This document shows, in pieces, positions 4 to 63,251 of a stretch of DNA of 64,000 nucleotides (positions are counted from its first letter, which is position 1; the number at the start of each line of letters is the position of its first letter). The stretch is from a virus. Under the pieces are notes generated by a model. The model saw nothing but the letters and a program-made list of their open reading frames with translations, did not search any database and had not been told where the DNA came from. Location of the stretch: positions 1 to 64,000 of the IMG/VR virus record IMGVR_UViG_3300030108_001677; one strand, 5' to 3'. A program made the position numbers and the translations under genes.

Positions 4-1353
4 GTGGAATCCATGAGAGTCGGTGAATTACCACCAAAGCAAATCAAGCCATTCATGGGTCGTTTTAGCGGCAAGAGAGCCGGTATTGTTGATGAATGGG
101 ATATTCCTATGAAATACAAGGAATTGACCGTTGACAACATTCATGGTGAAACTGTCGGCACTGGTAATCACATGGTTATCAATGAAGCCTATGCAAATGA
201 ATCCAACAATTTTGTCGGTATGCAAATTGGTCGCACAAAGACCGATGTGTATGCTTTCGCTCAACACAGTCATGTGCTACCACACTTCATTGACTGGGCT
301 TCAAAGAACGGACTACCATTCCATGCTTATGCAACCAATTTCGGCTGTGACGCTATGGTTGACATTCACATCTGTGACCTTCAATCCAAAGAGCAAGCAA
401 TCGAATCAATGCGTGATGCTATCGCTAACAGCACAGGAATTTCAACCACTGGCTTTGAAGCATTTGACGATCTTCTCAACCCAGCCAACATGTCATTCGG
501 TGTCCAAATTCGACACTCCTTTGACGGTTCTCTAAGTGTTCGTGGTATCATGCAAAGACTGGTTTGTGCTAACGGTATGGTTGGCACCCGTGAAATCAAT
601 CTAATAGCCGCACAGCACAAGAAGGGTGTATGGGAAACTATCTCTTTCAGTGCTATTGCTGAAATGGTCATGACACTGGTTGGCGAATTGTTCTCCCAGT
701 ATGAGGCTGTTGAGTCCATGAATGAAATCAAATTGAACCCAACCGACCTTGAGGCTCTAATTGCATTACAGGTTGAAAGAGGTATCATGTCTTACCCATC
801 CATTGGACAGGATGCACAATTGACTGGTGGCCGCCAATACAGACTATTCACACAAGGCTGGGCTGACCCTAATCAATCATGGGTATCGGTCGGTGAACAA
901 CACGATGGCTCACAGGTCGGCACACTTTATCAAGCATACAATGACATCAACGGTATCATCAACCACCAGCCTTCACTTCGTGATGCTCACGGTAGTGTTG
1001 ATGGCGGCAAGGCAATTTCCTTCGCTAAGACTGAACAGGATCTAGCAAAGCAACACAGCCTATACATGGAGATTCAAGAGGATGCTATCAGTGCTTTCAC
1101 ACAGGCCACTGGTGCCGCACCAAAGGCTGGCGAATTACAGGCTTTCGTTGATGAGTATGGCATCCCTATGCTCAACAACATGGTCGCACAGGAACCACGC
1201 ACTGAAACAGTTAGCACAGACCGTGCTGGTAATGTAACTATCCGCCAGTGGAATGCTGGTGATATACTACCAACCATCATCAAGAATGTCGGTTCTAACA
1301 ATGAGGTATCACGCCCACTAACAGCACAATTCAACATGGCGGTGGTTGCCTAA
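4..1353 (+). CDS. DUF932/DUF945-like protein (may start before the window)
   Basis: Motif IRHSFDGSLSV...RLVCANGM resembles the DUF932 NSHDGS...RLVCxNG signature; frame is open to base 1. Confidence 0.7.
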   Translation: MESMRVGELPPKQIKPFMGRFSGKRAGIVDEWDIPMKYKELTVDNIHGETVGTGNHMVINEAYANESNNFVGMQIGRTKTDVYAFAQHSHVLPHFIDWASKNGLPFHAYATNFGCDAMVDIHICDLQSKEQAIESMRDAIANSTGISTTGFEAFDDLLNPANMSFGVQIRHSFDGSLSVRGIMQRLVCANGMVGTREINLIAAQHKKGVWETISFSAIAEMVMTLVGELFSQYEAVESMNEIKLNPTDLEALIALQVERGIMSYPSIGQDAQLTGGRQYRLFTQGWADPNQSWVSVGEQHDGSQVGTLYQAYNDINGIINHQPSLRDAHGSVDGGKAISFAKTEQDLAKQHSLYMEIQEDAISAFTQATGAAPKAGELQAFVDEYGIPMLNNMVAQEPRTETVSTDRAGNVTIRQWNAGDILPTIIKNVGSNNEVSRPLTAQFNMAVVA

Positions 1354-1437
1354 GCGGGATATTCATTTGTTCCCTCACCGGTATGACGGCCAGCGTAAAT
1401 GCTTGCTTGACTGGTGATTGGGCACAAATGACCCAGC
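1354..1437 (+). other. Long imperfect intergenic stem-loop
   Basis: TCATTTGT(1363-70) pairs with ACAAATGA(1424-31); TCACCGGT pairs with ACTGGTGA (one G-U); inner AGCG-TAAA-TGCT. Confidence 0.6.
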
Positions 1438-1455
1438 AAATTTGGAGAGATTATC

Positions 1456-2907: not shown

Positions 2908-3191
2908 TGTCGGGATTTGTTGAACAGCAATTCGATGCACCACCTAAAGGAAAAGGTCGCCACCGAAAGGTGCGAACCCTTTGGAGGACAGTGAAGCAAA
3001 CCACAGGCTCACCACCCACGCTTATTCACTACATGCCAGCAAGACGCTGGTATGAGATCGATGGCGAGCGTGTTTTCACCGAGCGAGCGACATGGGTGAT
3101 TCATCACAAAACAGGGAGATTCATTTACACTGGCACTTCACCGGAGATTGTTCAACAAATTCACACAGACGGGCTTACAGGAGAGGCTTAG
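2907..3191 (+). CDS. Hypothetical protein
   Basis: TGATG coupling; GGAGG SD. Confidence 0.65.
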   Translation: MSGFVEQQFDAPPKGKGRHRKVRTLWRTVKQTTGSPPTLIHYMPARRWYEIDGERVFTERATWVIHHKTGRFIYTGTSPEIVQQIHTDGLTGEA

Positions 3192-3192
3192 A

Positions 3193-3384: not shown

Positions 3385-3386
3385 AC

Positions 3387-4769: not shown

Positions 4770-5365
4770 ATCTATTTTTCCTCCATCGTTTAGCGTGGCT
4801 TGCTGGCATTATGCACTGCGACAAACATGTGCCTAAGATGATTGTTGAAACATGTCAAATGCTATCAACGGCTCTCATGAAGCACACGGGGCTGGGAGAG
4901 TTAATGCCGATGCGTGTTGACGGTAAGACCCCCTATTCGGGCAATAGTTATCCACACCATCCCAGCACTAAGTGGGTGGGCTTGACAAGAGCAAACTACC
5001 AGTGGGCTGTCGATCTGGGAATGTCATTACTCAATGAATACGAAAAGAGATTCGGCAAGACTCATGGTTGCACTAATGCTCTCCATCATTTCGCACAAAA
5101 CGCTGACTGGATTCCGGACTTGACTGATGGAGTAATTACACCTATGGCACTGGCTATGGCTACCCAGTATGACTACATCATCGAGGAACACCAGCACACC
5201 GACCGTGTGCAAGCATACCGTGACTTCTATGTTGCTGATAAGATACGATTTGCTAAGTGGGAAAAAGGCACACCAGCCCCACGCTGGTGGAAAGAAGCCC
5301 TTGCTATACCACAGCCCACTGAACCCAGCACACCGTTGGTTAAATACCCCGAACCCACTGGGTGA
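4766..5365 (+). CDS. Pyrimidine dimer DNA glycosylase (T4 endonuclease V-like family)
   Basis: MNLFFL...HCDKHVPKMIVETCQMLST...HHPSTKWV...NYQW family pattern. Confidence 0.8.
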   Translation: MNLFFLHRLAWLAGIMHCDKHVPKMIVETCQMLSTALMKHTGLGELMPMRVDGKTPYSGNSYPHHPSTKWVGLTRANYQWAVDLGMSLLNEYEKRFGKTHGCTNALHHFAQNADWIPDLTDGVITPMALAMATQYDYIIEEHQHTDRVQAYRDFYVADKIRFAKWEKGTPAPRWWKEALAIPQPTEPSTPLVKYPEPTG

Positions 5366-5369: not shown

Positions 5370-5951
5370 ATGGCGAAGAAGAACAATATTCCGAAAGCAC
5401 ACCGAAAACCACCTAAGCCAAAGGCGGTAAAGAAGCGCAAGAAAAGCCGCTTCGTTGACTTAGAACAGATCCGAAGATGGTTCATTACCAACCACTACGA
5501 TGTGGAAACACCCGAATCATTTGTTGTGAGCGAGGTTTTCTCTTGCTACAAACACCCCAAAGGTAAGCACAAACCACTGGCGACTTCAATCAAGCAAGCA
5601 ATCCGTAGGGAATGGAAACGCTGGGAAACACATCCACAATATGTTTCGCCAACGCCAACGGATAACCCTAATTTATTCCACATGAATTATCCTAACGGTA
5701 AGGATGTGTATGACAATCACATGAAGAAAACTAATCCCAACAATGCGCTGGGTAATGTTGATGCTTTAGCACGAAAGATACAGCGAGATCTGACAAAGAC
5801 AGAACAGCAAATCCAGCGACTAAAGAAGGAATTGCTTGAGGCTCAAAATAAACAATTGCGACTACAACAAAAACAGTGCATACTCAACAATTTCCTTCAA
5901 CACGATATGACCGTTGAAGTAATTTCTCTTGTGGAAAAAGACCTGCAATAA
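5370..5951 (+). CDS. Hypothetical protein: basic N-terminus, C-terminal coiled coil
   Basis: GGTGA SD; Lys-rich start; Gln/Leu heptads. Confidence 0.7.
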   Translation: MAKKNNIPKAHRKPPKPKAVKKRKKSRFVDLEQIRRWFITNHYDVETPESFVVSEVFSCYKHPKGKHKPLATSIKQAIRREWKRWETHPQYVSPTPTDNPNLFHMNYPNGKDVYDNHMKKTNPNNALGNVDALARKIQRDLTKTEQQIQRLKKELLEAQNKQLRLQQKQCILNNFLQHDMTVEVISLVEKDLQ

Positions 5952-8399: not shown

Positions 8400-8707
8400 A
8401 CCTTCAAGAAGTAATTGCTAAACTACAATTTATACACGATGATGAGGAAATAATGTCTTACATTCACGAAAAAGAAAAGGCGCATGAAGATTTCAATGGT
8501 GAAAAACTGGCGTGGAATAAGAATGATGATGATGATGATTCTTTCAGTGTTGGTTGGACTGTTCAAGAGGTTCTTGACGCACAAAACGAAGCATATAGGC
8601 AATTAGGATTATATGAGTCCACAGGAGAAACCTTAGACAGATCTGACTTTAGCGATGAAGAATGGTGCGACTGGATTGAAGAAATACTAACGGAGGGTCG
8701 CTCATGA
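8396..8707 (+). CDS. Highly acidic small protein
   Basis: About 29 D/E versus 8 K/R in 103 aa. Confidence 0.75.
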   Translation: MNLQEVIAKLQFIHDDEEIMSYIHEKEKAHEDFNGEKLAWNKNDDDDDSFSVGWTVQEVLDAQNEAYRQLGLYESTGETLDRSDFSDEEWCDWIEEILTEGRS

Positions 8708-9418: not shown

Positions 9419-9882
9419 AAACAACAGCGTTCACTAAAGCATGGTTTGATGGTTATTATGACGACCTTTTAGATCTTGCTAATCATTTGATTGAGAGCGA
9501 AGGTTGGAGATTGGCCGACCCCGAAGATGAAACATGGTTGGTAGTTTGTGACACAGCACACAGTATTTGGTTGAAAGCGGTTGGCCGTGTTGGTCGTGCC
9601 CCGAAGCCTTTGTTGGTTGATTGCCTGTATATTTGTGCTAAACTATCGGGTAATCGTGTTGGTATCAAAGCCATCAAGCGTGCCACAAAGGATTTGTGGG
9701 GTAAAGGCATAGAGGTATTACCACTTGACCGTAGGCGAGATAACAGGCGTTGGGTATGGGCATACCGCTATGAGATATTACAGGAATACCCCGATGTAGC
9801 CGCATGGGATGATTTCGTTAGCGCATGGAAAGATAAGATAGTCGATCCTGCATATTTCGATGAGAGTGATAATAATGATTAG
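9415..9882 (+). CDS. Protein with a single TFB/TFIIB cyclin-repeat-like segment
   Basis: GRAPKPLLVDCLYICAKLSGNRVGIKAI resembles the TFB repeat GRSxxxxAAAxLYIACRxxxxPRTLxEI. Confidence 0.5.
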   Translation: MKTTAFTKAWFDGYYDDLLDLANHLIESEGWRLADPEDETWLVVCDTAHSIWLKAVGRVGRAPKPLLVDCLYICAKLSGNRVGIKAIKRATKDLWGKGIEVLPLDRRRDNRRWVWAYRYEILQEYPDVAAWDDFVSAWKDKIVDPAYFDESDNND

Positions 9883-10220: not shown

Positions 10221-11665
10221 GCATGAGCGTTAATTTCCGCCACATCTCCGCTTGCTGTCGCCAAGCATACAATGGTGTTAGGCGACCTGCGGTTGTAGCG
10301 GAATCAGCGTTTGCTCTTTCGCCCCGTGATATACCACAACTGATAGACTTCTTTTACGAGGATAGTCGCATTGACAGGAAATTGACCGATGAGGATTTGC
10401 GTGAGATATTTTATCATCTCACCGACCTTTACCCCGAAGAATGTCAAGACGATCCCGACATCATTGATTTGATGTCGAACCTTGCGCCAAAGGATAAGGA
10501 AACGAGAATGACATTTGGTTTCGCATATCAAAGGATGCAAGACATACTTGATGAAACCGACAACCGCATTCGTGCGTTTGCTATGCGTGTGGTTCTCAAG
10601 CGTAGCGAACCTAAAGACGCTTACTGGTTTATCCTTCGTTTGACACGAACCGCCAACCCTTTCAAGAGGCGTGATATTATTCACGCACTGGCTAAACACC
10701 ACGATATACCGGCTGAAAGGTTGAAGCGGGAATCCATGTTCACTACGCTAAAGGAATTGTCATTTAGGGCTAATGAGGATAAACTGGTTGGGGTTCCAAC
10801 TATTGGCGAGCGCATGTTGTTGCCACTACCAAGAAGGCATACTGATATGGAAAAGCCATTCTCTAAGATGGCTATGGAGGTTATTCGTGGTGAACGACTG
10901 ACGCTACATACACACCCAACATTCTATTGTTTAACATACGATCCGCACGGTGAAGAAATAGAAACCGATGACATAGATACTACACAATTGACAGCGTGCT
11001 TACCAAACGGAATATACATCGTTGAACACACACCACAAGACGATTTCCCGTTGAAGGTCTGTGATGCTTTACATGTAGTGGACACTGAAATATTCGACAA
11101 AGACTACAATGCAAGAAGGGAATGGCTTGAGGAAACTGTTTCGGATTTATTACTCAAAGAAATAGAGCGTGTTGATAACATGAAGCAAGTAATAGGTGCC
11201 GCACCCAAGAATGGTGTTGTTTTCTTACACAATCTTGAGGCAAGCACTACCTTCACTACTTCGCCCAATGAAACTGTATTGTTCAGCACAAAACACAGGG
11301 GAGAGGTATTCCGTGTGTTAGGTGGTGTGTGGAGGCATGAGCCAGCCAAAGGTCTTGCATTGACTGGCTGGCGTATTGGTGCCCGTGATGGGATCGATGG
11401 CTACTATGAGGTCGGAACAATTACAGCCGAACCGGATGTGCAAAAGCGTCTATTCCGTTTGACTGAAAAATCCACAGCCGCCGAAGGCACACGGGTGGAT
11501 ATGAAAGGTGCTACCTTTGTTGAGGTCGAAGTCCATACAGCAGACTATGATGAGCGAGGAATACACCTTCAAGGTATTATCACCGATTTAGCACCAAGCA
11601 TGGGTATATCCGATGTTGTTGCGGTTGAGGATATTGAGTATTTGGTGGGTGATGTTGATGAATGA
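10217..11665 (+). CDS. ATP-dependent DNA ligase-like protein, catalytic Lys missing
   Basis: Helical N-domain, NTase-like core and OB domain (FRVLGGVW...WRIGARD...YYEVGTI); motif I reads EVIRGER instead of KxDGxR. Confidence 0.7.
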   Translation: MSMSVNFRHISACCRQAYNGVRRPAVVAESAFALSPRDIPQLIDFFYEDSRIDRKLTDEDLREIFYHLTDLYPEECQDDPDIIDLMSNLAPKDKETRMTFGFAYQRMQDILDETDNRIRAFAMRVVLKRSEPKDAYWFILRLTRTANPFKRRDIIHALAKHHDIPAERLKRESMFTTLKELSFRANEDKLVGVPTIGERMLLPLPRRHTDMEKPFSKMAMEVIRGERLTLHTHPTFYCLTYDPHGEEIETDDIDTTQLTACLPNGIYIVEHTPQDDFPLKVCDALHVVDTEIFDKDYNARREWLEETVSDLLLKEIERVDNMKQVIGAAPKNGVVFLHNLEASTTFTTSPNETVLFSTKHRGEVFRVLGGVWRHEPAKGLALTGWRIGARDGIDGYYEVGTITAEPDVQKRLFRLTEKSTAAEGTRVDMKGATFVEVEVHTADYDERGIHLQGIITDLAPSMGISDVVAVEDIEYLVGDVDE

Positions 11666-16933: not shown

Positions 16934-19234
16934 TTGATTGTAACAACATACGCTACTGAAGATCATGATTGTCCTTCAATCCACATTCGTTTCCGCAACC
17001 AAGACGGAAAGGTGATGGAGAAGGTTGTGGATAAATACTATCCTTACTTCTTCATTTCAGCCGACAGTGATATGGCACATATCACCCAAGTGTTTGATGA
17101 AAGATTTGATGGTTGGTATGTTGGTGCTGTTGAGGCAAATTCGCTACCCACAAAGGAATATCCCGAAGGGAGGAAACTGATACAGGTGATTGCACCCGAC
17201 TTGAGTGCGATGAAGCAAATGCGAGATGTTTGTGATGAAACATGGGAGGCAGACATTGGTTATGCCGACCGGTATTTGATAGATGAGATCGCGCCCGAAG
17301 ATTTCCCCGACTGGTTTCCGAACATGGTTCGTGCTGGTGGACTTGACTTAGAATGGAATAAAGACGGTGAGATTACTGCTATGGGCTATACCACAGACGG
17401 TGGGGTTGTTCAGCAGTGGTCTTGGCATCCAACCTATGAGGGTTTTCTCAATTGTCTGTTTTTCCGTTCCGAGAAGGATATGCTTGAGTCATTTGCACAA
17501 GCGTTTGAGGAATTAGACCCCGACATGATTACTACATGGTCGGGAAACCGTGCCGACTGGCCTAAGATATACGAAAGATACAAACACCATGACATCGGTT
17601 TAGACTGGATTTCACCGTTGGCTGGGGTCAGTGCTTCGCCACCAATGATGCACTTGCCGAGAGATGGTCGCTACAATGACGGTAGCCAAATCATACTCGG
17701 TCGCATGGTTTTAGACTTAGCGGATCGGAATCATGGTTTTGAGCGTGTATGGAAAGATAGTGGCAACGGCCAGTTATCCGATAGACGATTAGGTGCTGTT
17801 GGTAAAGAGGCGTTTCCTAACAATCCCGAATTGTGGAAAATAGATACCAACGGCATAACACATCACGACCTTTGGCTTAATCATTTTGAGGATTTCTTGA
17901 AATATCATCGTGCCGATGTTTTACTAACAGACAGACTGGATAGAGAATATCATGTTGCACGCTTCTTCATGGCATTACAGCGAGTATGCGGTGTTTCTTT
18001 TTCATCGGTATTTACTGTCAGTAAATTCGCAAGAGGGTTATTACGAAGGCGTGCTACATGGGCGGCACCCACTGGAACATACAAGAAGGGCGTTGGTGAT
18101 TCATACGGTGGTGGCTTTGTTCCGCACCCAAAGACTGGGCGTTTCTATGATGTAGCATGTTTCGATTTCCGAGCCATGTATGCTGAAATACAGCGTGGTA
18201 ACAACATCAGCCCCGAAACCATACGCTTTAGCACAGGAGATGGAATCCGTGAATTGGGTAATGGCACTTATTGGTATCAAGGTGAGCGTGGGGTATTGCC
18301 CCAACTGCAAATGGATCTTGCCGATGCGAGGAATGCCGCCAAAGCGGAGATGAAAAAACATGCACCGGAATCATCGGAGTATGCCGGTTTCAACACACTA
18401 CAATTAGCCTTCAAGCGTGCCGCCGCCAGCGTATATGGTTTGATGGGTCATACTGGGCACGGTGAGTCGCACAAGACTGTGGCATCAACCATTACCTATG
18501 TCGGTCGCCAATTGACATCACGCTTGATGGAGATATGCGAGGACATGGGCTTTGAGCCGTTGGCTGGGCACACCGACAGCGCATACATACAAATCGGAGA
18601 TAACGATGGTGAGAATATCGCTGATGCTTTGACACAAACCATACAGAAGGAGTTTGACTCCGATAGGTTTGTTGTCGAGTATGAGAAGCACATGAGGGCG
18701 TGGGTAGCGGCTAAGAAGAATAGAAATTTTGGCTGGGTCACTTGGCCGAAAGAAGGACTACACTGCACAGGCTTTGAGATGAAGAAGTCAAATGCGGCAC
18801 AGATAACAAAAACAATACAAGAAAATGCCTTTGAGGCTATGTGCAAAGACAATGCCGATGAGTCATACATACAAAGACTGGTCAATGATGCAATCGCTGA
18901 TGTCCGAAATATGAACCGCAAGGATCTTGTTATGCGTTCTCGCTTAGGTGAGAAAGCCGAATCATATTCACAGAACGGTGGCTTTCAAGGGGCGGCTAAG
19001 AAATACAACCGCTTGAACCCCAACAATCGCTTTGACAAAGGCGATGGTGTTCCTCATGTATATACTACAAAAGGGATTGAAGCGTTCAAGACCGATGAAG
19101 AATTGAGCAAATTAGACATAGATTTCACCACTGTGATAGAAAAGCAAATTATAGCACCCGTTTCCCTTATCTTTGAGGCGATGGGTTGGCGTTTGCCGTC
19201 AGCCGATGGTGCTAAACCACAGGAGTGGTGGTGA
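16934..19234 (+). CDS. polB: Family B DNA polymerase
   Basis: Exo DLE and ADW; motif A DFRAMY; motif B KRAAASVYG; motif C GHTDS; KKNR; TGFEMKK. Confidence 0.95.
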   Translation: MIVTTYATEDHDCPSIHIRFRNQDGKVMEKVVDKYYPYFFISADSDMAHITQVFDERFDGWYVGAVEANSLPTKEYPEGRKLIQVIAPDLSAMKQMRDVCDETWEADIGYADRYLIDEIAPEDFPDWFPNMVRAGGLDLEWNKDGEITAMGYTTDGGVVQQWSWHPTYEGFLNCLFFRSEKDMLESFAQAFEELDPDMITTWSGNRADWPKIYERYKHHDIGLDWISPLAGVSASPPMMHLPRDGRYNDGSQIILGRMVLDLADRNHGFERVWKDSGNGQLSDRRLGAVGKEAFPNNPELWKIDTNGITHHDLWLNHFEDFLKYHRADVLLTDRLDREYHVARFFMALQRVCGVSFSSVFTVSKFARGLLRRRATWAAPTGTYKKGVGDSYGGGFVPHPKTGRFYDVACFDFRAMYAEIQRGNNISPETIRFSTGDGIRELGNGTYWYQGERGVLPQLQMDLADARNAAKAEMKKHAPESSEYAGFNTLQLAFKRAAASVYGLMGHTGHGESHKTVASTITYVGRQLTSRLMEICEDMGFEPLAGHTDSAYIQIGDNDGENIADALTQTIQKEFDSDRFVVEYEKHMRAWVAAKKNRNFGWVTWPKEGLHCTGFEMKKSNAAQITKTIQENAFEAMCKDNADESYIQRLVNDAIADVRNMNRKDLVMRSRLGEKAESYSQNGGFQGAAKKYNRLNPNNRFDKGDGVPHVYTTKGIEAFKTDEELSKLDIDFTTVIEKQIIAPVSLIFEAMGWRLPSADGAKPQEWW

Positions 19235-19235
19235 C

Positions 19236-27186: not shown

Positions 27187-27197
27187 AAACCAACGCC

Positions 27198-47711: not shown

Positions 47712-49286
47712 CTAAATCCCCCTACTAAACCCACCTTGTCTTGAACGGTTCTTGAATAATCGCCCAACTTCTTCGCCCACCATTCGTGCTATCCTACGGG
47801 GGTCGCCATTTGCACCACTTACATTGATGTTGATTGTGGTTTCACCGCCTCCCATATCACCCGCACTTTGTATAGTTACAGGTATGGTTCGGCCATCGGG
47901 TAGTGGCACTACTGCTTCTGTGCCGTGCAATTCAGCAGGGTAGCCGGACTTAGGACCAGTTACTACACCACCCCTTGCTAACTTCAACCCTTCAATGTTA
48001 ATTTTCGGCACATCGTCAAATGGATTAATCTTGTTAAATACGCCAATTACTTTGTTCAATAACTTCAATGCTGGTGAAATGAAGTCAATTAGGCTATTAA
48101 CGAATTGCTTGAAGAATGCCTTAACTCCGCTTAATACATCTTTCCAAACACCGCCAATTGATATTAGAATCTCCTTAACCTTGCCAAAGTCACCACGCAG
48201 TAATGCTACAAACGCACTAACAAGTTTCATGGCGGTTCTAACGATTCCCATAAAGATAGTCAGTATAAAGCCAAATGCGGCTATCAGCATTTTGTAGTAA
48301 GGTGCTATGTATGGATATACGAAACGCACGATCCTAATCACGATAGAAATGATGGCCGCCGCAAGGAACACTACGGTTGCTATAATCTCACTTACTAACT
48401 GGATTATGTCACCTATGAAAGCAAATATGCCGGAATTGACCAAGAAATCCATAAGATATTGGAATAATCCGACAACCATATCGAAGAATTGTTGAACACC
48501 ACCGTCACCAAGCGCACCCATTATCATATCCCATGCGTCAGCAAACCCTTCGTAAATTGTAACAATACCATCAAGCACTGCTTGTAAGAAACCGGATTCG
48601 GCTAAAGCAGTAATAAAGGACATGATGATGCCAGTTATCATTGTCCAATAGCCCATGAATAACTCCGCTACGAATGTTAAGGCATCAACAATACCATCCA
48701 CTACTGATTGGAAATCAAGACCATCGGGCAGTGTCAAATTATCTTTGAGCGTTTGCCATGTTTCTTTTATCTTAGCGATAGCGTTGTCAATAACGCCCAT
48801 CAATCCACCGATAATTGGCAGATCTTCTAACCACTTTCTAAGCGTTCCTCCACCTGTATCGAAAGCGGCAACAAGTAACATAACGACACCTACCACCCCC
48901 ATCATCAGCCCCATAAGCGGCAATATAGACATCAATAACATCTTGAAGAAACCACCAACCCCCTTGACAACACCACCAAGCAACATGAACGGTGCGGCAA
49001 GGACTGTGGCCGCCACACCCATACGCTCACTGGATTCTTCGGTTTTATCAGCCGATTCTTCCATAGTGTTGCCCAAATCTTGTGCTGGTTTGTTAGCATC
49101 AGTGAAGGTTGATGTAAGGCTCTTTACAGCCATGTCCACTTTCATGTATGTTTTCATCAAAGGACCGAATACCTTGAGCAACACACGGGTTTTATCGGGT
49201 AAAATTGTTAGAACATCGTTAAATTCTTGATAGGTAGCAATCAGATCCGCCATAGCGTAATTGTTTTGCTTTAACGAATTAGCCAT
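47712..49286 (-). CDS. Tail tape measure protein
   Basis: Amphipathic and hydrophobic helices; LARGGVV...HGTEAVVPL C-terminal motif; follows tail chaperones. Confidence 0.85.
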   Translation of the reverse strand: MANSLKQNNYAMADLIATYQEFNDVLTILPDKTRVLLKVFGPLMKTYMKVDMAVKSLTSTFTDANKPAQDLGNTMEESADKTEESSERMGVAATVLAAPFMLLGGVVKGVGGFFKMLLMSILPLMGLMMGVVGVVMLLVAAFDTGGGTLRKWLEDLPIIGGLMGVIDNAIAKIKETWQTLKDNLTLPDGLDFQSVVDGIVDALTFVAELFMGYWTMITGIIMSFITALAESGFLQAVLDGIVTIYEGFADAWDMIMGALGDGGVQQFFDMVVGLFQYLMDFLVNSGIFAFIGDIIQLVSEIIATVVFLAAAIISIVIRIVRFVYPYIAPYYKMLIAAFGFILTIFMGIVRTAMKLVSAFVALLRGDFGKVKEILISIGGVWKDVLSGVKAFFKQFVNSLIDFISPALKLLNKVIGVFNKINPFDDVPKINIEGLKLARGGVVTGPKSGYPAELHGTEAVVPLPDGRTIPVTIQSAGDMGGGETTININVSGANGDPRRIARMVGEEVGRLFKNRSRQGGFSRGI

Positions 49287-50353: not shown

Positions 50354-52612
50354 TCAAATGATGTAATACGGGTTATGCTCTTGAACCTTTAGATGTCGGA
50401 CAGCAAACTCCACGCTTGCAGTAACCGGTCCTTTATCATCGGGCATTGGATGTTCCGCTTTCATCAATGTGTAATCTTCAAGTGTAATTGTGCCTCTTTG
50501 TCTTGTGCCAGCCGAGCCGGGTTTATTCAAGACCAGTGTGCAATCGTTTGTGTTTATGTTATGCTTACGGGTTCTCAATTCTTCAAAGAACCTATCATCT
50601 TCAACCAATGCGGTGAAGGTGAATGAGTATTCCCTTGCCGCCTCCGTGATTTCCGAAGCATACTGTGTAGCGGCTTCTTGCACCTGATCTGCATCAGCAT
50701 ACGCACCATCTGTGCCTCTAATGTAAAACTGTGCGGTGTTGCCATTAGCAATACTGATGTTGACATCTTTTGCTCGCAATACGGTAGCACCAAAGGCACT
50801 GAATAACATGTGCTGGAATAGGTATGGCTTTTCGCCATTGACGGCAATACCGGACACACTACGCTTGGTTATGTCATTTGCAGTGTTCTCAAACATACGG
50901 TGTGGTGTAATGAATTGGTTGTTGGTGTCTTTGAACATGCGTGTCGCTTCAAAGTTAGTGGTCATTTTTAATTCACCTTCACTGTCAGCAGTTAGGCTCA
51001 AATCACTCACTTTACAACCGGAAAACACCCGTAGCATTTGGTTTGTGCCCGGTGTTGTATCGGTGGTGCGGAATGATTGCTCAAAGCAAAAGGTCGGTAG
51101 TGTAGTGTAGCCAAAGAAGTTATGCTCAACACCATTCTTCAATTCGCCAGTGGACAACAGTGCTGGTGAGCCACGCTCATGTGCTACTGTTCCATCAAGA
51201 GTATATTGTAGTCTTTCCACACCACACGATGCGGCTACATGGTCGAATAAGAATGGTTCCTCAACATAGATGTAACCTTGATCTGAACCATTTGCACTAC
51301 CAATGCCAATGACCCTGCGGATTTCATGCTTGTGTAATGTGGGTGCTGTAACATCAGCACCCGGCACTTGAACAGTATCTTTGTCAAAGATTTGAATGTA
51401 ATCACCAAGAGTAAATTTAGCCGCATTTGCATTTGATAGTTTGATGCGTATATCGCCAGCACTCACAGCAAGGGTTGGTCGAGCCAGTAAGTAAAGTGGC
51501 ACACCTACGGTCTGTGCCCTTGCTTTAGCACCTGTATCAATGTCAGCCAAGCCATCTATTTGTGCGGCGTTTAGTGTAGTGTATGAGCCAAGTAAAGGCG
51601 CACCTGCGGCACTTAGCACCTTAAACAGCCCTGCGGCTGGTGCATCTTCAAAGATTGAAGCAAAGCCAGTTATGCCATTACCAGCAGTGCTGATTTGTGC
51701 ATCGGTAGCACCTGCCGCCGCAACGGTCAATCCACCTATCAATATATCTTGGTCAAGATGGCCGGGTTGGTCAAGACCTGTTACATCTGTGCCATTTGCG
51801 GCAATACCCGTTACAGTGATGTCAAGAACCGGTGCAGGGTCAAATGTGTTTTGTGCGGCGTATGTCATGTTGTTGACATTTGTTTTGAGATTTAATGGTG
51901 TAGCCGTTATGGTTCCATTACTGTCACAGTGAGCAAACTCACCTACGCTCTTTGCAGTGTGTCCACCCAAAGCATATTTCCACATCTTCAATGAATGTGC
52001 ATTCAAGTCCATAGAACCACCAGCAAGAGTTTCCTTGCCCGATGTTAAGACATTCACATCACGACCCATACCTATGATGTGTTGCTTTCTAACATCTATC
52101 TCCGGTTCGGGTAGCGTGAATGAGTTAAGCAATCCTAAAAATTGGTCGGTTTTGATTCTTTCATCGGAACCTGCTGTGCAATTGTGGTCGTATGTTGGAA
52201 CACGCAGTGAATCAATAATGAAGAAATCGCCTGTGTTTGCAGTGGCCGGACTGGTTGCCAATCTCGGTGTGACGGTTATGGTAGCATCATCGTTTGCAGT
52301 GATGTAGTATGTTCTCTTTGTTGTTGGAAAGTGATCGGCAGTGAAAGCGTTGCTACCGCCCGATGAATAGATACGCAGTGTAGCACCAATCAACATGCCA
52401 TTGGGCACCATCATGTGCCCATCGGTGTCAACCCAATACATGGCCTCTCCGATAGTAATTATACTGCTGTTCTCGGTGGTTCCGTTGGTTGTTGACCAGC
52501 CCGATGTAGCACTGCCTCCGCCCGCTACATTGGTTCCTTGTCCTACTAATCCGGTTTCTTTGCCCATAGATATTTCAATTAAATCTCCTTTGAATACTTG
52601 ATTTACTGGCAT
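50354..52612 (-). CDS. Major tail (tube) protein with inserted domains
   Basis: ISMGKE start, LPTFCFEQ, RVFSGCKV; position before the chaperones. Confidence 0.75.
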   Translation of the reverse strand: MPVNQVFKGDLIEISMGKETGLVGQGTNVAGGGSATSGWSTTNGTTENSSIITIGEAMYWVDTDGHMMVPNGMLIGATLRIYSSGGSNAFTADHFPTTKRTYYITANDDATITVTPRLATSPATANTGDFFIIDSLRVPTYDHNCTAGSDERIKTDQFLGLLNSFTLPEPEIDVRKQHIIGMGRDVNVLTSGKETLAGGSMDLNAHSLKMWKYALGGHTAKSVGEFAHCDSNGTITATPLNLKTNVNNMTYAAQNTFDPAPVLDITVTGIAANGTDVTGLDQPGHLDQDILIGGLTVAAAGATDAQISTAGNGITGFASIFEDAPAAGLFKVLSAAGAPLLGSYTTLNAAQIDGLADIDTGAKARAQTVGVPLYLLARPTLAVSAGDIRIKLSNANAAKFTLGDYIQIFDKDTVQVPGADVTAPTLHKHEIRRVIGIGSANGSDQGYIYVEEPFLFDHVAASCGVERLQYTLDGTVAHERGSPALLSTGELKNGVEHNFFGYTTLPTFCFEQSFRTTDTTPGTNQMLRVFSGCKVSDLSLTADSEGELKMTTNFEATRMFKDTNNQFITPHRMFENTANDITKRSVSGIAVNGEKPYLFQHMLFSAFGATVLRAKDVNISIANGNTAQFYIRGTDGAYADADQVQEAATQYASEITEAAREYSFTFTALVEDDRFFEELRTRKHNINTNDCTLVLNKPGSAGTRQRGTITLEDYTLMKAEHPMPDDKGPVTASVEFAVRHLKVQEHNPYYII

Positions 52613-55321: not shown

Positions 55322-55699
55322 TCAGCGACCGCCAGTAATAACGATTTCAGCAACCATATCTTGTAATTGTGCGCTTGTATCGGCTATTTCGATAAAAGAC
55401 AATCCACCTGCTATTGCGGCGGCACCTTTAGTAACTTGATTGCCACTGGCTTCTGTGCTACTGGCGAAAGCCTTGATTGTTTTACTGGTGTAATCATATC
55501 TTAACAAAACACCACCAAGATCGATATTTGGTGACTCTTTTACAAGAATGTCAACACTATCAACATCTCCCACATACGCATTTGCGTCAAATGGCTCTCC
55601 GCCTAACGGATAAGAATTGTCAAAGGTTACATTTACAAAGGCTTGGATTTTAGTGCCGGTTACATTGTTTCTTTTGGTTTGGGTAATCGTCAGTGCCAT
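55322..55699 (-). CDS. Putative virion structural protein
   Basis: FDNSYPLGG; head module context. Confidence 0.6.
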   Translation of the reverse strand: MALTITQTKRNNVTGTKIQAFVNVTFDNSYPLGGEPFDANAYVGDVDSVDILVKESPNIDLGGVLLRYDYTSKTIKAFASSTEASGNQVTKGAAAIAGGLSFIEIADTSAQLQDMVAEIVITGGR

Positions 55700-59741: not shown

Positions 59742-59748
59742 TATTTAA
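59742..59748 (-). promoter_or_regulatory. TATA-like box for the protease-capsid operon
   Basis: TTAAATA about 25 nt before ATG 59717; GGTGA SD between. Confidence 0.45.
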
Positions 59749-62700
59749 CCGCTTTGGGGAGGCGGGGGTAGTGGAGGCATCATTTCATCTTGCACCGAAT
59801 CATCCATTGGCACTTCAACTTCTTGCTCATCCTTCATTTCTTGTTCAGTCTTTCTTGGTAAGCGAATTGTGGCTCGGTTGCCCTCAACTTCTAACTCTCC
59901 CTCAAGATCTTCACCCCTACCATCTTTGGTGCTGATGCGAATATGTTGTGCCCCGCCTGTTGGTATTGTATCTTCGGGTTGATATGGGTCATAGAAAGGC
60001 GTGGCTTCTTCATCCACCAACTCGGTCGGTCCTGTTGGATTAGTGAACATATCCATCATACCCGACCAACCACCACCAGTAATGCTACCGGTCAATCTTG
60101 CCAATGGTGAGCCTTTGCCACCTTTCTCGGTAACATCATCGTCAATTGCTTCATTGACAGTCCATTTACCATTCTCATCACGCTCAAGTCCGTATTCTGT
60201 GCCAAACTGCTCAACATCTTTTTCAGTTAGTCCTTCGACAGCATTAGTCAATTCGTCAATGGACATAGACTCATCTTTCTCGGCAATAAGCCTCCTTGCC
60301 GCTACCAGTTTTTGCTCAACGGGTTTAGGATCTCCTTCGGCATCTAACAGTGACGCTTTGTATAGTGTTGACTTGACTGTGGTTAGTTTGGGTGGGTATG
60401 GTGTCAATTGTTTTATGTCATACTTCAACAAATGCACACCGATAGCACCCCATACGGGTATTTGTCTTTCAGCGTGCTGTGCTAAAGGACTGGCTGGTTC
60501 AATACTCTCAATGTCAAAACCCTCACCATCCCATTCACCTTTTACTACCAAAGGTGCAGGGTGCCCACTGTATTCTAACACGATGTTTTGGTTACGAATA
60601 GACACTGTTGGGAATGGCGCATACATCTTTTTCATGTCGCCATCCGGTGTGTAACACACCCATTTGTGGTGAGTTTCCTTGCCCTTCATGAATGTTGAAG
60701 TGGCATCACGCAACCACAAATCACCACCCAAAGCATCCATGTTTGAGCGCAAACCACCAGCATCGCTGAATTTACAATCGGCTGGCATAGGGAATGAAAT
60801 GCCTTCATCGGTTTCATACAAGGTGCGGAGTATAGACAACCTATCCTCCAATTTTTCCATGTGTATATCATCGCCTTTATGCACTAACAAATCAATAGCC
60901 CGATAATGCCCATCATTTAGAACACCATCAAATAGGCAATCGCCATCTTGCTTTCTAACTCCCTCTTTTACCTTTAATGGTAGTGATACATTTTTGCCCC
61001 TACCGTTGGTTGCCTTAACATGACCACCTTTCTTTTCGACAAAGACACGCTTGCCTTCGGGTTTCTTTTGCACTACCCAATCACCAGTAAAGCCTTTGAG
61101 ATCTGCAATAGATGAAAAGTCGTATATGGTATGTGCTGGTATTATTGATTGCTCAAATACACCTGTCGGTTTGTAATCATCGGATTTGAATAAGTCACCA
61201 CTTATCATAGAGTTTGCACCCATCATATCCGTAGCCTCAAGCGCAGGTATGCCGTTGACCTTTTCTTTGATTTGGTAATCTTGAAATGTTGGGTGAACCA
61301 TGCCTACATGGCCTTCATGTGCGGTTCTTTGTAATGTTTCAAACGGTTTGTCTTTTACATCAAAGCGTATTGCATTGTTTTTCCTATCCCAATTATATGC
61401 CAATGTCGCTGGCATTTTATGACCCCAAGCATCTTTATCTCCTGTAAGATACACTGGTGGCATTGTAGCCATTGATGTTGGTGAAATAGGTCCGATTGGC
61501 ACATCACGCTGTGCCAAACCTAAGCCCATCACCATAGGTGCAAATGATGTCATGCTGTCGTCACCACCAGCCCTCATCAATTGCATGTTAGCCGCTTTAG
61601 CCAACTGTTGAATGTTTGCTCTTGCTATTGTATTGCCTAAAACATCTTTAGGATCTGTTCCAAATAACAACTCCGGACCGTATTCTTTGCTCAACTGTGC
61701 CGCCATTTGTTGCATCATTCGGCCTAAGTGTGCATCGGTCTTTTCATAATGGTCATTGTGATATGTGTGAAATTCCTCATCACCGGGATGTCGCTCTCTT
61801 GTCGGTCCGATTCTTGGTTGCCCTGCATCTGTATGTGATGCGATTATCCTACCCAAACCATTCGGATTGGTAGCGAAAGCATAAGATGGTATTATCATAC
61901 GCTTACCTGTGCCTTGAATCTCACTTGGGTGATAATGTGCCCCGTTTGATATTGTTGACCACAAAGCCCTTCGCCTGTTGAAACCACGAACATAAGGATG
62001 TTCCGAACCTGCCGCCCACCCTGTTGAAATGGCTGAACGGTGCGGGTGTCCTTTCATCATTTCGTGGTTTGCAGTTTGAGGAAAAAATGATGAGCCACTA
62101 CTATGCCAAGCATCTTCACTGTCATTTAATGGATGATTGCGGTCAGCCAACCAACCAAACAACTCATCACCAAGCCAACCTTTGAATGCGGCAGGGTATG
62201 AATCTCGCATCATTGTTTGGAGGGATTGAGCATCACGACCAACCCCTCCCCAGTATTGGAAAGGCAACCAATAGTGATGAGTCATTGATGGCTCAATCGT
62301 GTTATTGTCACCCATAACATACGGGCTTTTCAAATGAGTCAAACCCGAAGCCGTATCTTCGGGCGATACAGGTCCGTGGCGATCTGATGGGCGTTCCCAC
62401 CAACGGGCTATCGGTAAGAAACGCTCAAACCAATTGCGCTTTGCTCTATCCCACGATACACCCGATGTTGCTTTGAAATCATTTTTTATCTTTCTTGCAT
62501 CGGCACCGTTTGGATTTTCAGTTTGACCCAATTTCTTGAGGGTGTTCATGAATTGCTCACGCTGGTCAATACCTTGCCATTCTAAACCAAACAAGTATGA
62601 CAATAGGCCAAGCCTACCTTGTTTGCCAGCCCACTGCTCTTTCTTTTGCTCAAGATATTCTTCATCGTCAAGATATGAAAAACGGTTCATCCTATCAGCC

Positions 62701-63251
62701 ATATACAAATCATGTAGTGATTCGATTGGCCTACCTACAATATCAGCATACTCTTTGGGTATCTTGCCCAGCCTTTGAGCCTCTTTCATTGATTTGATAA
62801 TTGATTGACCTTCTTCATCTTCCTCAATCAAATGTAAAAGGTGGTCAACAAATGATGGTTCACCATATTCAGCCCCGTGTAGCAAAGGCATTGTTGGCAA
62901 TTCGTATGACATTGGGTGTCGCTTACCAAACCTGTTATCTTCACTTGCTACCGGCCAATCCTGTGCGTATGTGCGTGAGAACCTTCTTTGACCAGCGATA
63001 TAGTCCTCATACCCCTGTGGTAAATTGAGCGTGGTCATTGGTGATGGCTTGTCCATATCAAGCATCGAATACTGTGGTGGTGCTGTCATTGGTAGCATAC
63101 CAAGTATTGCCTGATCTTCTTTCTCTATTTGTGTGCTATCGCCATAGTAATCGTCTAACGCTTTGAGATAGATGTCGTGGTCTATGTCTTGATTTTGAAC
63201 AATTGACAAAAATGTGTCTGTTCTTATCCTTACAAATTCTTCACGGTTCAT
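59745..63251 (-). CDS. 1168-aa head-module protein with an internal ATP-dependent ligase-like nucleotidyltransferase domain
   Basis: WVVQKKPEGKR, LFDGVL, AIDLL...LEDRLSIL, LWLRDATS...KW. Confidence 0.75.
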   Translation of the reverse strand: MNREEFVRIRTDTFLSIVQNQDIDHDIYLKALDDYYGDSTQIEKEDQAILGMLPMTAPPQYSMLDMDKPSPMTTLNLPQGYEDYIAGQRRFSRTYAQDWPVASEDNRFGKRHPMSYELPTMPLLHGAEYGEPSFVDHLLHLIEEDEEGQSIIKSMKEAQRLGKIPKEYADIVGRPIESLHDLYMADRMNRFSYLDDEEYLEQKKEQWAGKQGRLGLLSYLFGLEWQGIDQREQFMNTLKKLGQTENPNGADARKIKNDFKATSGVSWDRAKRNWFERFLPIARWWERPSDRHGPVSPEDTASGLTHLKSPYVMGDNNTIEPSMTHHYWLPFQYWGGVGRDAQSLQTMMRDSYPAAFKGWLGDELFGWLADRNHPLNDSEDAWHSSGSSFFPQTANHEMMKGHPHRSAISTGWAAGSEHPYVRGFNRRRALWSTISNGAHYHPSEIQGTGKRMIIPSYAFATNPNGLGRIIASHTDAGQPRIGPTRERHPGDEEFHTYHNDHYEKTDAHLGRMMQQMAAQLSKEYGPELLFGTDPKDVLGNTIARANIQQLAKAANMQLMRAGGDDSMTSFAPMVMGLGLAQRDVPIGPISPTSMATMPPVYLTGDKDAWGHKMPATLAYNWDRKNNAIRFDVKDKPFETLQRTAHEGHVGMVHPTFQDYQIKEKVNGIPALEATDMMGANSMISGDLFKSDDYKPTGVFEQSIIPAHTIYDFSSIADLKGFTGDWVVQKKPEGKRVFVEKKGGHVKATNGRGKNVSLPLKVKEGVRKQDGDCLFDGVLNDGHYRAIDLLVHKGDDIHMEKLEDRLSILRTLYETDEGISFPMPADCKFSDAGGLRSNMDALGGDLWLRDATSTFMKGKETHHKWVCYTPDGDMKKMYAPFPTVSIRNQNIVLEYSGHPAPLVVKGEWDGEGFDIESIEPASPLAQHAERQIPVWGAIGVHLLKYDIKQLTPYPPKLTTVKSTLYKASLLDAEGDPKPVEQKLVAARRLIAEKDESMSIDELTNAVEGLTEKDVEQFGTEYGLERDENGKWTVNEAIDDDVTEKGGKGSPLARLTGSITGGGWSGMMDMFTNPTGPTELVDEEATPFYDPYQPEDTIPTGGAQHIRISTKDGRGEDLEGELEVEGNRATIRLPRKTEQEMKDEQEVEVPMDDSVQDEMMPPLPPPPQSG

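Follow-up and report, generated by a model that had tools for sequence, protein, structure and literature searches.

Our results show that a marine virus, probably of archaea, has been purged of some 55 short restriction-type words, and that several of these words persist solely at overlaps with GATC. We judge it very likely that this shadow stems from some mark directed at GATC. With distinctly less assurance we also favour the full account, in which the mark shields the purged sites, is N6-methyladenine and is written by a Dam-like methylase encoded by the virus itself.

Results

Purging of restriction-type words

The window, that is the whole stretch analysed, comprises the first 64,000 bases of an 86,382-base viral contig (G000 in the comparisons below), a record estimated to be 81% complete. 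It contains no copy of ACGT, AGCT, GTAC, CCWGG or GCWGC, and YCWGR, CTAG, CGCG and ATCGAT are confined to overlaps with GATC. Words of five and six letters with zero copies include GAGAC, GGGAC, CTCAG, GTAGA, GAATTC, GATATC, ATGCAT, TGCGCA, TGATCA and CGATCG. By our own criteria 55 minimal words of four to six letters are purged from the contig, far more than the sequence-only reading of this DNA had listed, and five 4-mers are down to 0-3 copies across 86 kb. The null used for comparison was a set of 100 synonymous-codon shuffles of 71 ORFs, which cover 92% of the contig. The shuffles gave on average 417 copies of YCWGR (range 385-450; 7.5% overlapping GATC) where 16 are observed, 134 of CTAG (4.8% overlapping GATC), 129 of CGCG (2.8%), 214 of ACGT, 266 of AGCT and 232 of GTAC; ACGT and AGCT are both observed 0 times. 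Target-type words thus lie far below a codon-preserving null, as is characteristic of restriction-site avoidance. The avoidance is visible at the level of codon pairs, and the earlier suggestion that Pro-Gly pairs steer clear of the purged words was borne out: ahead of a codon beginning with GG, proline is encoded by CCC (27) or CCG (25) and never by CCA or CCT, while CCA is the commonest proline codon overall (631 of 1412).

GATC itself is retained at about half of expectation in the marine lineage. Some palindromes that contain it are lost altogether: TGATCA is absent from G000 (0 vs 37 expected) and also from the related contigs G001 and G004, and CGATCG has no copy in G000, G001, G002, G006, L005 or L017, where each should have 8-9. 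AGATCT is scarce in G003 and G006.

Survival at GATC

In the window all 12 copies of YCWGR, all three of CTAG and the single CGCG overlap one of 107 GATC (Table 1). Over the whole contig the figures are 16/16 for YCWGR, 3/3 for CTAG, 1/1 for CGCG and 4/4 for ATCGAT, against 142 GATC. The sites that had been picked out by eye prove to be correctly placed and to be every window copy of YCWGR, CTAG and CGCG, and the full count of window and contig yields no exception to the rule. Other words that survive only at GATC in the contig are GCAGGA, CGACG and CGTCC; all four contig copies of GCAGGA have the form GCAGGATC. Two of the three copies of CTGAAG overlap GATC, both as CTGAAGATC.

Table 1. GATC-overlapping copies of purged words, and two methylase genes, in the window
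Feature	Position	Strand	Basis or remark
GATCTAG (CTAG at 1042; only C of GATC in common)	1039..1045		word count
GATCTAG (CTAG at 26145)	26142..26148		word count
CTAGATC (CTAG at 35777)	35777..35783		word count
GATCGCG (sole CGCG, at 17290)	17287..17293		word count
GATCTGG (YCWGR; TCTGG at 5014)	5012..5018		word count
GATCTGA (YCWGR; TCTGA at 5789)	5787..5793		word count
GATCTGA (YCWGR; TCTGA at 8642)	8640..8646		word count
GATCTGA (YCWGR; TCTGA at 20598)	20596..20602		word count
CCTGATC (YCWGR; CCTGA at 28657)	28657..28663		word count
GATCAGG (YCWGR; TCAGG at 33721)	33719..33725		word count
GATCTGA (YCWGR; TCTGA at 34519)	34517..34523		word count
TCAGATC (YCWGR; TCAGA at 49241)	49241..49247		word count
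CCTGATC (YCWGR; CCTGA at 50683)	50683..50689		word count
GATCTGA (YCWGR; TCTGA at 51282)	51280..51286		word count
GATCTGA (YCWGR; TCTGA at 62383)	62381..62387		word count
CCTGATC (YCWGR; CCTGA at 63110)	63110..63116		word count
GATCGAT (ATCGAT, ClaI-type word)	3056..3062		one of 3 window copies, all GATCGAT
GATCGAT (ATCGAT)	11392..11398		one of 3 window copies
GATCGAT (ATCGAT)	55519..55525		one of 3 window copies
GCAGGATC (sole surviving form of GCAGGA)	34912..34919		word count
GATCCTGC (GCAGGATC on opposite strand)	9844..9851		word count
GATCGACG (sole CGACG)	63916..63923		word count
CTGAAGATC (CTGAAG)	16956..16964		word count
CTGAAGATC (CTGAAG)	24720..24728		word count
Beta-class N4/N6 DNA methylase (SPPY motif), 336 aa	20176..21186	+	PF01555 at 182 bits
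Divergent Dam-family (D12 class) N6-adenine DNA methylase, 456 aa	25831..27201	-	PF02086; candidate GATC-mark writer

Readings that dispense with any modification can be given almost no weight, and no observation speaks for them. Chance would have to place 16 of 16 YCWGR at GATC when 7.5% are expected to overlap it (about 1e-18), so the count against the shuffled null that the sequence-only reading had called for speaks clearly for a real association. An extended specificity of the host enzymes is difficult to reconcile with at least ten unrelated words carrying the same GATC exception across different genomes, since no single enzyme specificity encodes that. Sequencing or assembly artefact is opposed by the origin of the contigs in different metagenomes, by their intact reading frames and by the marine runs from 11 studies that contain part of the stretch.

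Rate and geometry inside the shadow

The neutral expectation inside the shadow was obtained by extending GATC by order-1 base transitions, with both strands counted. Against it the contig has 16 vs 18.2 copies of GA|TCWGR, 6 vs 4.5 of GAT|CTAG and 2 vs 4.2 of GAT|CGCG. When seven lineages are pooled, purged words overlapping GATC by two bases are found 154 times against 147.8 expected (ratio 1.04), and those that share only the C 33 times against 127.4 (ratio 0.26). The survival rate steps up once the word takes in the T·A pair of GATC. Within the one-base class, CTAG (9 vs 13.4 expected) and CGCG (7 vs 12.5) survive without the A of GATC inside them; further words with the shared C as their first base go unshielded, namely CCWGG (0 vs 13.0), CAGAG/CTCTG (0 vs 10.4) and CTCAG/CTGAG (0 vs 8.6), as is GATCTAC (0 vs 9.8). 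When all 4-mers were scanned without bias, GATC overlapped more residual sites than any other in G000, G002 and G005; for G001 and G004 it was one site short of the leader or level with it, the leaders being AGAT and ATCG, which are sub-words of GATC contexts.

The shadow in related viruses

The same GATC shadow is seen in related marine virus contigs, in which other words have been purged. TCGA lies at GATC in 41/41 cases in G004, 18/18 in G002, 16/16 in L005 and 15/15 in L017, and ATCGAT in 12/12, 8/8 and 6/6 cases in G004, G005 and G002. The shadow sites are mostly non-homologous between clades: 24 of the 43 sites of G000 are held in common with its close relative G001, and 0-3 with each of seven other relatives compared. 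The strongest shadow, that of G005, comprises YCWGR 29/29 and CTAG 3/3.

The proposal that GATC is modified and shields host restriction sites has therefore gained strong support, of an indirect kind, from the neutral rate, from the rank of GATC among possible shields and from replication in relatives.

A proposed cytosine mark

One account of the writer, put forward in the sequence-only reading, is that the C of GATC carries N4- or C5-methylcytosine made by the SPPY methylase, which would cover CTAG and CGCG directly. The SPPY motif is typical of N4-cytosine enzymes, and the survival of CTAG and CGCG with only the C in common agrees with such a mark. We nevertheless regard this as highly improbable. 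The orthologue is missing precisely at the syntenic site in G005, where a PD-(D/E)XK gene ending at 59996 is followed by a gene with its start at 59993, and PF01555 has no match anywhere in the 64-kb G005 record, yet G005 keeps its shadow at all YCWGR, CTAG and ATCGAT copies. In the L005/L017 clade a different beta-class methylase occupies the slot, and neither genome has an SPPY orthologue. The SPPY methylase is thus dispensable for the shadow, because relatives without it retain one. CCWGG, CAGAG/CTCTG and CTCAG/CTGAG begin with the same C and are unshielded all the same, and CGATCG remains purged. A search for the C5-methylase domain PF00145 found none in all six records searched (G000-G004 and G006).

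The Dam-like methylase

The other candidate that had been named, an effect of adjacent N6-methyladenine from the Dam-like methylase, fares better than the SPPY enzyme. The protein matches PF02086 at 43.8 bits (cut-off 22), its EPMGGSGS motif precedes DPPY, which is the alpha-class order, and it has an N-terminal extension of about 110 residues. Searched alone, its best solved relative is found at E 7e-06. With a profile of seven orthologues and a limit of E 1, eight solved sequences were matched; the six with E below 0.001 all belong to DpnM (E 1.8e-08), which is GATC-specific, or to E. coli Dam (about 2e-04), and the other two are unrelated proteins at E of about 0.8. The gene is the last of the late, structural strand. 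Orthologues were found in four of four whole records in one search and in one of two in another, and are present in G001, G002, G003, G004, G006, L005, L006 and L009. Dam-like gene and full shadow occur together in G000, G001, G002, G004 and L005. From its sequence relationships, this enzyme appears the likeliest writer of the mark in the present genome, and its product would be N6-methyladenine.

The loss of CGATCG and the scarcity of AGATCT fit a mark on A rather than on C, since Dam methylation leaves enzymes of the PvuI and BglII types unaffected and methylation of that C stops them. Several observations count against this assignment. TGATCA is purged although Dam methylation stops enzymes of the BclI type; CTAG and CGCG are protected with the methylated A outside the word; GATCTAC gains no shielding; and ATCGAT in the shadow of G003 numbers 1 vs 7.4 expected. 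In G006 and its clade the orthologue is intact and the shadow is nearly empty of TCGA (1 vs 9.5). The TIGR00571 dam score of the protein, 47.1 bits, is below the NCBIfam cut-off of 114.85.

Exchange of the methylase cassette

In L017, L008, L021 and L002 an unrelated C5-methylase-like ORF stands in place of the Dam-like gene. The swap is clean, with flanks 91-92% identical to L005, and after it every TCGA still lies at GATC (15/15, 10/10, 5/5 and 13/13, respectively). G007, G009 and G011 also carry the C5-like gene, and their shadow is full (TCGA 11 vs 8.3 and 17 vs 8.7 expected, ATCGAT 5 vs 4.7). Together with L017 they have a full shadow and no Dam-like gene in the sequence searched; the records of G007, G009 and G011, which give no D12 match, are just 40-51% complete. 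Since the shadow is intact in these relatives, the mark may be written by some other enzyme or by the host. The two kinds of cassette share an N-terminal W-[SD]-[IV]-[ML]-K tag and a C-terminal LF, and every virus contig examined has one or the other at the slot.

These data give substance to a second account, in which GATC is modified and shielding but the writer is a GATC methylase of the host or the methylase, of either class, that occupies the cassette slot. It would explain why the shadow outlasts the swap in two clade pairs with similar purged sets (Jaccard 0.92 for L005 vs L017, 0.68 for G004 vs G011), why L005 and L017 each have GATC-overlapping sites of their own (5 and 7) where both retain GATC, and why G006 combines a Dam-like gene with little shadow. 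G010 points the other way: this 94% complete record has the C5-like gene, no D12-class match and a weak shadow only (two-base overlaps 2 vs 8.8 expected, three-base 1 vs 11.2). The partial state of the records without a D12 match also tempers the argument, and if the host wrote the mark it would be strange for every contig examined to bear the expense of a methylase at the slot. On balance we consider this account unlikely, if by no means negligible. In its slot-methylase form the writer would be Dam-class here and C5-class in relatives of the L017 type, where the mark would be GATm5C. The comparison of relatives with and without each methylase that the sequence-only reading had proposed thus speaks against the SPPY enzyme and leaves a mixed verdict on the Dam-like gene: the shadow persists where that gene has been replaced and is weak in G010.

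Discussion

The account that we prefer, with a viral Dam-family writer, can be put as follows. Hosts with many restriction systems would have driven the loss of about 55 short target words by synonymous change, and GATC itself would have been kept because the virion DNA is modified there, most likely as N6-methyladenine on both strands. Where a word includes the methylated A·T pair, as in GA|TCWGR, GA|TCGA, G|ATCGAT and GCAGGA|TC, the host enzyme would be blocked, and such copies would therefore be neutral and accumulate at the chance rate. Where only the C·G pair is in common, the mark would adjoin the word and protect some words, CTAG fully and CGCG partly. More tentatively, a whole lineage of marine archaeal viruses may keep a GATC mark as a broad-spectrum shield by means of interchangeable Dam-class and new, very divergent C5-class cassettes, placed where the replication module meets the structural one.

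Neither the avoidance of restriction sites nor the inhibition of restriction enzymes by overlapping Dam methylation is new. The literature searched contains no account of the two combining into a sharp, countable footprint, in which a purged word has no copies outside GATC and the number expected by chance within it. Such a footprint reveals a virus-modified motif without methylation sequencing, lists the restriction targets of uncultured hosts (about 55 words here) and identifies the host enzymes that respond to the mark, together with the overlap geometry required. If the reading is true, the viral epigenome, the restriction catalogue of the host and the methyl-sensitivity of individual enzymes could all be read from sequence alone, and cutters of CTAG and CGCG would be subject to an unexpected block by a mark on a neighbouring base pair. 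In the relatives the same read-out exposes the methylase cassette swap and clades with a failed shield, which are natural experiments on anti-restriction in marine archaea, none of which can so far be grown in culture.

Comparison with known systems

The virus belongs to a marine lineage of tailed viruses, and its host probably belongs to the Archaea. All nine capsid protein matches are to archaeal viruses. For PolB the best-covering matches among those listed are haloviruses (21-23% identity), and the majority by number of the 330 matching records are cyanophages. Magroviruses, the viruses of Marine Group II archaea, are described in PMC5434244 as marine, with a halovirus-like head module, PolB and a clamp loader, and with an MCM helicase, an archaeo-eukaryotic primase, a RadA-like ATPase and a sliding clamp in all genomes. 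The present virus likewise combines marine origin, a halovirus-like head module, PolB and a clamp loader (an RFC-like AAA protein at 12640-13599); MCM (PF00493) has no match in the 86-kb, 81% complete record. The closest deposited capsid relative, Haloarcula tailed virus HVTV-1, is a tailed virus of archaea whose genome, about 100 kb long, likewise encodes PolB and a clamp loader, and its CTAG is depleted as well (7 vs 111 expected in 50 kb). It differs in having removed GATC itself (0 vs 319 expected in 50 kb), whereas the marine lineage keeps GATC and appears to use it as a shield.

The haloarchaeal virus PhiCh1 encodes a Dam-like enzyme, M.PhiCh1-I; no purge or shadow was seen in the 50 kb examined, in which none of 11 CTAG lies at any of its 558 GATC. 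Orphan Dam methylases of phages include T4 Dam and P1 Dmt, according to a review (PMC12707154). The present enzyme would resemble them in being virus-encoded, without a partner nuclease, putatively GATC-specific and a proposed protector of viral DNA, and it is distinguished by its great divergence and its 110-residue N-terminal extension.

Avoidance of short, mostly palindromic type II words in phage and archaeal virus genomes has been described (Rusinov et al. 2018, PMC6286503), in a paper that nowhere uses the terms 'overlap', 'orphan' and 'Dam'. Compared with the avoidance set out there, the purge reported here is extreme and conditional on context.

The shadow has a counterpart at the laboratory bench, where Dam-blocked enzymes are a cloning nuisance in vitro; in the virus the same effect would appear as an evolutionary footprint of a putative methylation. 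Overlapping Dam (Gm6ATC) methylation blocks ClaI (ATCGAT), TaqI (TCGA), XbaI (TCTAGA) and NruI (TCGCGA), and also BspEI (TCCGGA), BspHI (TCATGA) and Hpy188I (TCNGA). The words shielded in the virus or its relatives include ATCGAT, TCGA, TCWGA, TCGCGA, TCCGGA, TCATGA and TCTAGA, and in both settings the overlap places the Dam adenine inside the site. The viral shadow goes further than its laboratory counterpart, in that it extends to CTAG and CGCG, which share only the C with GATC.

Purged words survive only at GATC

The sequence-only reading of this DNA had held that YCWGR, CTAG and CGCG are missing from the multi-kb stretches it covered, and that the few exceptions it found all overlap GATC, a pattern that we call the shadow. 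Our full count of the window gave 12 copies of YCWGR, 3 of CTAG and 1 of CGCG, and all 16 overlap one of the 107 GATC sites; every site coordinate in that reading was correct and its list of exceptions for these words was complete. The same is true of the whole 86-kb viral record that contains the window (the contig, or G000), in which the overlap is 16/16 for YCWGR, 3/3 for CTAG and 1/1 for CGCG, with 142 GATC sites. As a null we used 100 synonymous-codon shuffles over the 71 ORFs of the contig, which yielded on average 417 YCWGR (range 385-450), 134 CTAG and 129 CGCG, with 7.5%, 4.8% and 2.8% of them, respectively, overlapping GATC, so the observed overlap is not chance-like. ACGT, AGCT and GTAC averaged 214, 266 and 232 copies in these shuffles; these three words and CCWGG have zero copies in the full count of the window. 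The suggestion that the words are avoided through the choice of codon pairs was also borne out, since proline before a codon starting with GG is encoded 27 times by CCC, 25 times by CCG and never by CCA or CCT, yet CCA is the commonest proline codon. The purging pressure falls on synonymous sites. By our own criteria 55 minimal words of four to six letters are purged in the contig, far more than had been listed, and they include GCWGC, GAGAC, GGGAC, CTCAG, CAGAG, GTAGA, GAATTC, GATATC, ATGCAT, TGCGCA, TGGCCA, CATATG and GTGCAC.

The expectation at GATC was obtained by extending GATC with genome-wide base transitions, both strands being counted. On this basis the overlapping forms occur in the contig at the chance rate (GATCWGR 16 vs 18.2 expected, GATCTAG 6 vs 4.5, GATCGCG 2 vs 4.2), and away from GATC the same three words are at zero where hundreds are expected. 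Several further words behave similarly: all four contig copies of ATCGAT lie at GATC, as do all four of GCAGGA (every one as GCAGGATC), the single copies of CGACG and CGTCC, and two of the three copies of CTGAAG. When every 4-mer was tested without bias as a potential shield, GATC overlapped 28 of the 66 residual sites in the contig vs about 0.9 by chance, and no second shield motif stood out there. A second shield that might have revealed the target of the SPPY methylase was thus not obtained, as the G000 scan yielded GATC and its sub-words only. Candidate shields in related viruses (G numbers denote whole records, L numbers related loci) were likewise rejected: GTTA in G006, G004 and G007 looks like part of a degenerate asymmetric purged word, VAACT, ACTG in G003 looks like part of another, CCAGV, and the CCGG signal in G010 comes from words that themselves contain CCGG. 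AACT/AGTT is purged from the whole records of G006, G004 and G007 save as TAACT, a purge that looks like that of a VAACT target.

Positions of the features discussed (window coordinates unless a record is named)
Feature	Position	Strand	Remarks
Contig	G000, 86382 bases		IMG/VR, linear; ~81% complete by CheckV; 44.6% G+C; window = first 64000 bases
Pyrimidine-dimer glycosylase	4766-5365	+	weak match, below Pfam cut-off
RFC-like AAA ATPase	12640-13599	+	replication block
PD-(D/E)XK nuclease	19173-20183	+	
SPPY methylase	20176-21186	+	PF01555; SPPY motif
ERCC4 + (HhH)2 nuclease	22770-23474	+	replication block
Dam-like, D12-class methylase	25831-27201	-	PF02086, 43.8 bits (cut-off 22)
C5-like ORF	L017:20192-21454	+	420 aa; syntenic with window 25831-27201; also in L008, L021, L002
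Tagged methylases	25831-27201; L017:20192-21454; L030:1468-2658		pattern W-[SD]-[IV]-[ML]-K-[GA]
SPPY orthologues with insertion	L001:13270-14487; L012, L013, L014, L016; G004:C1:24550-26418		
GATCTGA sites	5787-5793, 8640-8646, 20596-20602, 34517-34523, 51280-51286, 62381-62387		

The exception moves with the purged word in related viruses

Relatives were collected as 21 IMG/VR loci through the PolB protein (58-93% identity), with more through the Dam-like and C5-like methylases, and 11 whole records were compared. The sets of words that they purge differ in part, and the GATC exception moves with the purged word. GATC-overlapping copies make up 41/41 of TCGA in G004, 18/18 in G002, 16/16 in L005 and 15/15 in L017; 12/12 of ATCGAT in G004, 8/8 in G005 and 6/6 in G002; 29/29 of YCWGR in G005; and 5/5 of CGCG in G004. 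In G003, TCCGGA (6 vs 2.3 expected) and TCGCGA (4 vs 2.8) are found at GATC. The contig has 24 of its 43 shadow sites in common with its close relative G001 and 0-3 with each of seven others; shadow sites are largely independent between lineages. A tie between shadow strength and shared sets of purged words was also considered, but no clear association emerged from the Jaccard values.

The shadow is real, extreme and replicated, and a protective mark directed at GATC is by far its best explanation, one that we regard as very probable. This is the part of the original proposal that gained strong, if indirect, support: that GATC is modified and shields overlapping host sites, as the chance-rate shadow and its replication suggest. 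Of the two routes offered alongside it, cytosine modification by the SPPY enzyme did not fare as well.

Overlap geometry and a probable adenine mark

For the geometry we pooled seven lineage representatives (G000, G002, G003, G004, G005, G006 and L005). Purged words that share two bases with GATC are observed there 154 times against 147.8 expected (ratio 1.04), those that share the C alone 33 times against 127.4 (0.26), and those that share three bases, as in GATCGAT where it was counted as a minimal word, 5 times against 11.1 (0.45). The jump from 0.26 to 1.04 coincides exactly with the entry of the T·A pair of GATC into the purged word, as predicted for a mark on adenine. Among the one-base words, CTAG is shielded (9 vs 13.4 expected) and CGCG partly so (7 vs 12.5), with no shielding of CCWGG (0 vs 13.0), CAGAG/CTCTG (0 vs 10.4) or CTCAG/CTGAG (0 vs 8.6). 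The shielded two- and three-base words are ATCGAT, TCGA, TCWGA, TCGCGA, TCCGGA, TCATGA and TCTAGA, and these are the sites given in suppliers' tables as blocked by an overlapping dam site. The two-base class has its failures: GATCTAC is at 0 vs 9.8 expected, and GATCAGA is at 4 whereas GATCTGA reaches 23, with 17.9 expected for each. This asymmetry at the central base of TCWGA may reflect a strand-specific sensitivity of the host enzyme.

Some GATC contexts stay purged. CGATCG is absent from G000 (8.9 expected), G001, G002, G006, L005 and L017, and AGATCT is scarce in G003 (2 vs 11.3) and G006 (0 vs 5.1). Enzymes of the PvuI and BglII type are insensitive to Dam methylation and are blocked when the cytosine of the site is methylated, which argues for adenine and against cytosine as the marked base. 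TGATCA is also at zero in G000 (37 expected), G001 and G004; BclI is Dam-sensitive, so this purge is at odds with simple Dam protection. The lack of TGATCA and CGATCG, the rarity of GATCAA (2 vs 64 expected) and GGATCA (4 vs 49), and the biased 5′ flank of GATC (A 120, C 65, G 69 and T 30 in the contig, both strands) indicate that some GATC contexts are themselves purged.

Candidate writers of the proposed mark

The Dam-like protein carries EPMGGSGS and DPPY motifs and an N-terminal extension of 110 aa, and it falls short of the NCBIfam Dam cut-off. A profile built from seven orthologues matched eight solved sequences at E ≤1, six of them below E 0.001; these six belong to two enzymes that act on GATC, DpnM (E 1.8e-08) and E. 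coli Dam, and the other two, at E ~0.8, are unrelated proteins. Orthologues with 35-94% identity occur at the same module border in G001, G002, G003, G004, G006, L005, L006 and L009. The likeliest form of the mark in this genome is N6-methyladenine made by the Dam-like enzyme that the virus itself encodes, and we give this reading somewhat better than even chances.

The SPPY motif is a hallmark of N4-cytosine methylases, and the SPPY enzyme was the earlier candidate for a cytosine mark. Its orthologue is precisely absent from G005, where the neighbouring genes abut, and the 64-kb G005 record has no PF01555 match, yet the shadow is strongest there. The SPPY enzyme is therefore very unlikely to be the writer. 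L005 and L017 have a different beta-class methylase in its place and keep the shadow, and searches of G000-G004 and G006 detected no PF00145 methylase. A cytosine mark from the SPPY enzyme is thus the disfavoured reading. In some SPPY orthologues an insertion that ranges in length from ~190 to 480 nt sits near residue 278 and may form a variable region for target recognition. A single 704-aa frame of G004 contains two PF01555 domains, and several such domains are present in G003.

The shadow is kept not only without the SPPY gene but also where the Dam-like gene has been swapped. In L017, L008, L021 and L002 a C5-like ORF on the opposite strand takes its place, between flanks 91-92% identical to those of L005, and the shadow is undiminished; where L005 and L017 both retain GATC, they have 5 and 7 lineage-specific overlapping sites, respectively. 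The ORF has no Pfam match, but it shows the C5-cytosine-methylase motifs FSAGGG, S-x-P-C-E (SPPCE) and E-N-P. It has 35 homologues in a large protein collection, with PF00145 on two of the most distant, and it founds a family with at least 35 members, carried on marine virus contigs of ~100 kb. A 19-member profile matched the solved cytosine-specific methylase 8yf3 at E 0.0016 and M.HhaI at E 0.8. GATC-specific C5 methylases exist, for example M.Sau3AI. Both cassette enzymes, although unrelated, have an N-terminal G-G-W-D-V-L-K tag and a C-terminal LF, which would be consistent with a shared fate. The Dam-type and C5-type sisters did not distinguish m6A from m5C, as CTAG is at GATC in 2/2 copies in L005 and absent from L017, L002, L008 and L021, with only about 2 expected, which is not significant.

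The strength of the shadow varies among genomes with either cassette. Three partial records of more distant viruses, with the C5-like gene and without a D12 match, retain it (G007, TCGA 11 vs 8.3 expected; G011, TCGA 17 vs 8.7 and CGCG 5 vs 1.8; G009, ATCGAT 5 vs 4.7). G010, which is 94% complete and has the same gene content in this respect, has only 2 two-base sites vs 8.8 and 1 three-base site vs 11.2. In G006 (the record behind L013) the Dam-like gene is intact and TCGA inside the shadow is at 1 vs 9.5 expected, likewise in its clade mates (L066, L068-L072); the sole TCGA, CCATGG and TCGCGA copies of the clade are still at GATC. A broken Dam-like gene in G006 was considered as the cause and rejected, as the in-frame TGA precedes the start, and both the 385-aa ORF and its motifs are intact. 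Either both cassette enzymes write a GATC mark, and the exceptions reflect host enzymes insensitive to it, or the mark has another writer, for instance a methylase of the host.

Comparison with known viruses

The stretch was found in marine metagenome runs from 11 studies. Its replication and repair genes (RFC-like, PD-(D/E)XK and ERCC4-HhH) are of archaeal flavour, and no tRNA genes were found in the window. Among the PolB matches listed, those with the best coverage are haloviruses at 21-23% identity; by number, cyanophages account for most of the 330 records that matched. The virus fits the magroviruses as described in PMC5434244 and may be one of them; no MCM match was found in the 86-kb, ~81% complete record. 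We found no prior account of such a shadow in the literature on restriction site avoidance and overlapping Dam methylation, including PMC6286503, PMC12707154, PMC11706807 and PMC5434244.

Against deposited phages the capsid protein had nine matches, every one to an archaeal tailed virus: HVTV-1, HCTV-1 and HCTV-5 of Haloarcula, and a Methanofastidiosa virus. Neither of two cultured viruses served as a model of the shadow. Natrialba virus PhiCh1, whose Dam-like methylase is M.PhiCh1-I, purges CTAG alone in its first 50 kb, and none of its 11 copies is at GATC. HVTV-1, the nearest cultured capsid relative, is without any GATC in 50 kb (L081, record positions 50001-100000; 0 vs 319 expected) and has 7 CTAG. 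HVTV-1 thus removes GATC, the opposite strategy to that of the present lineage for the same word.
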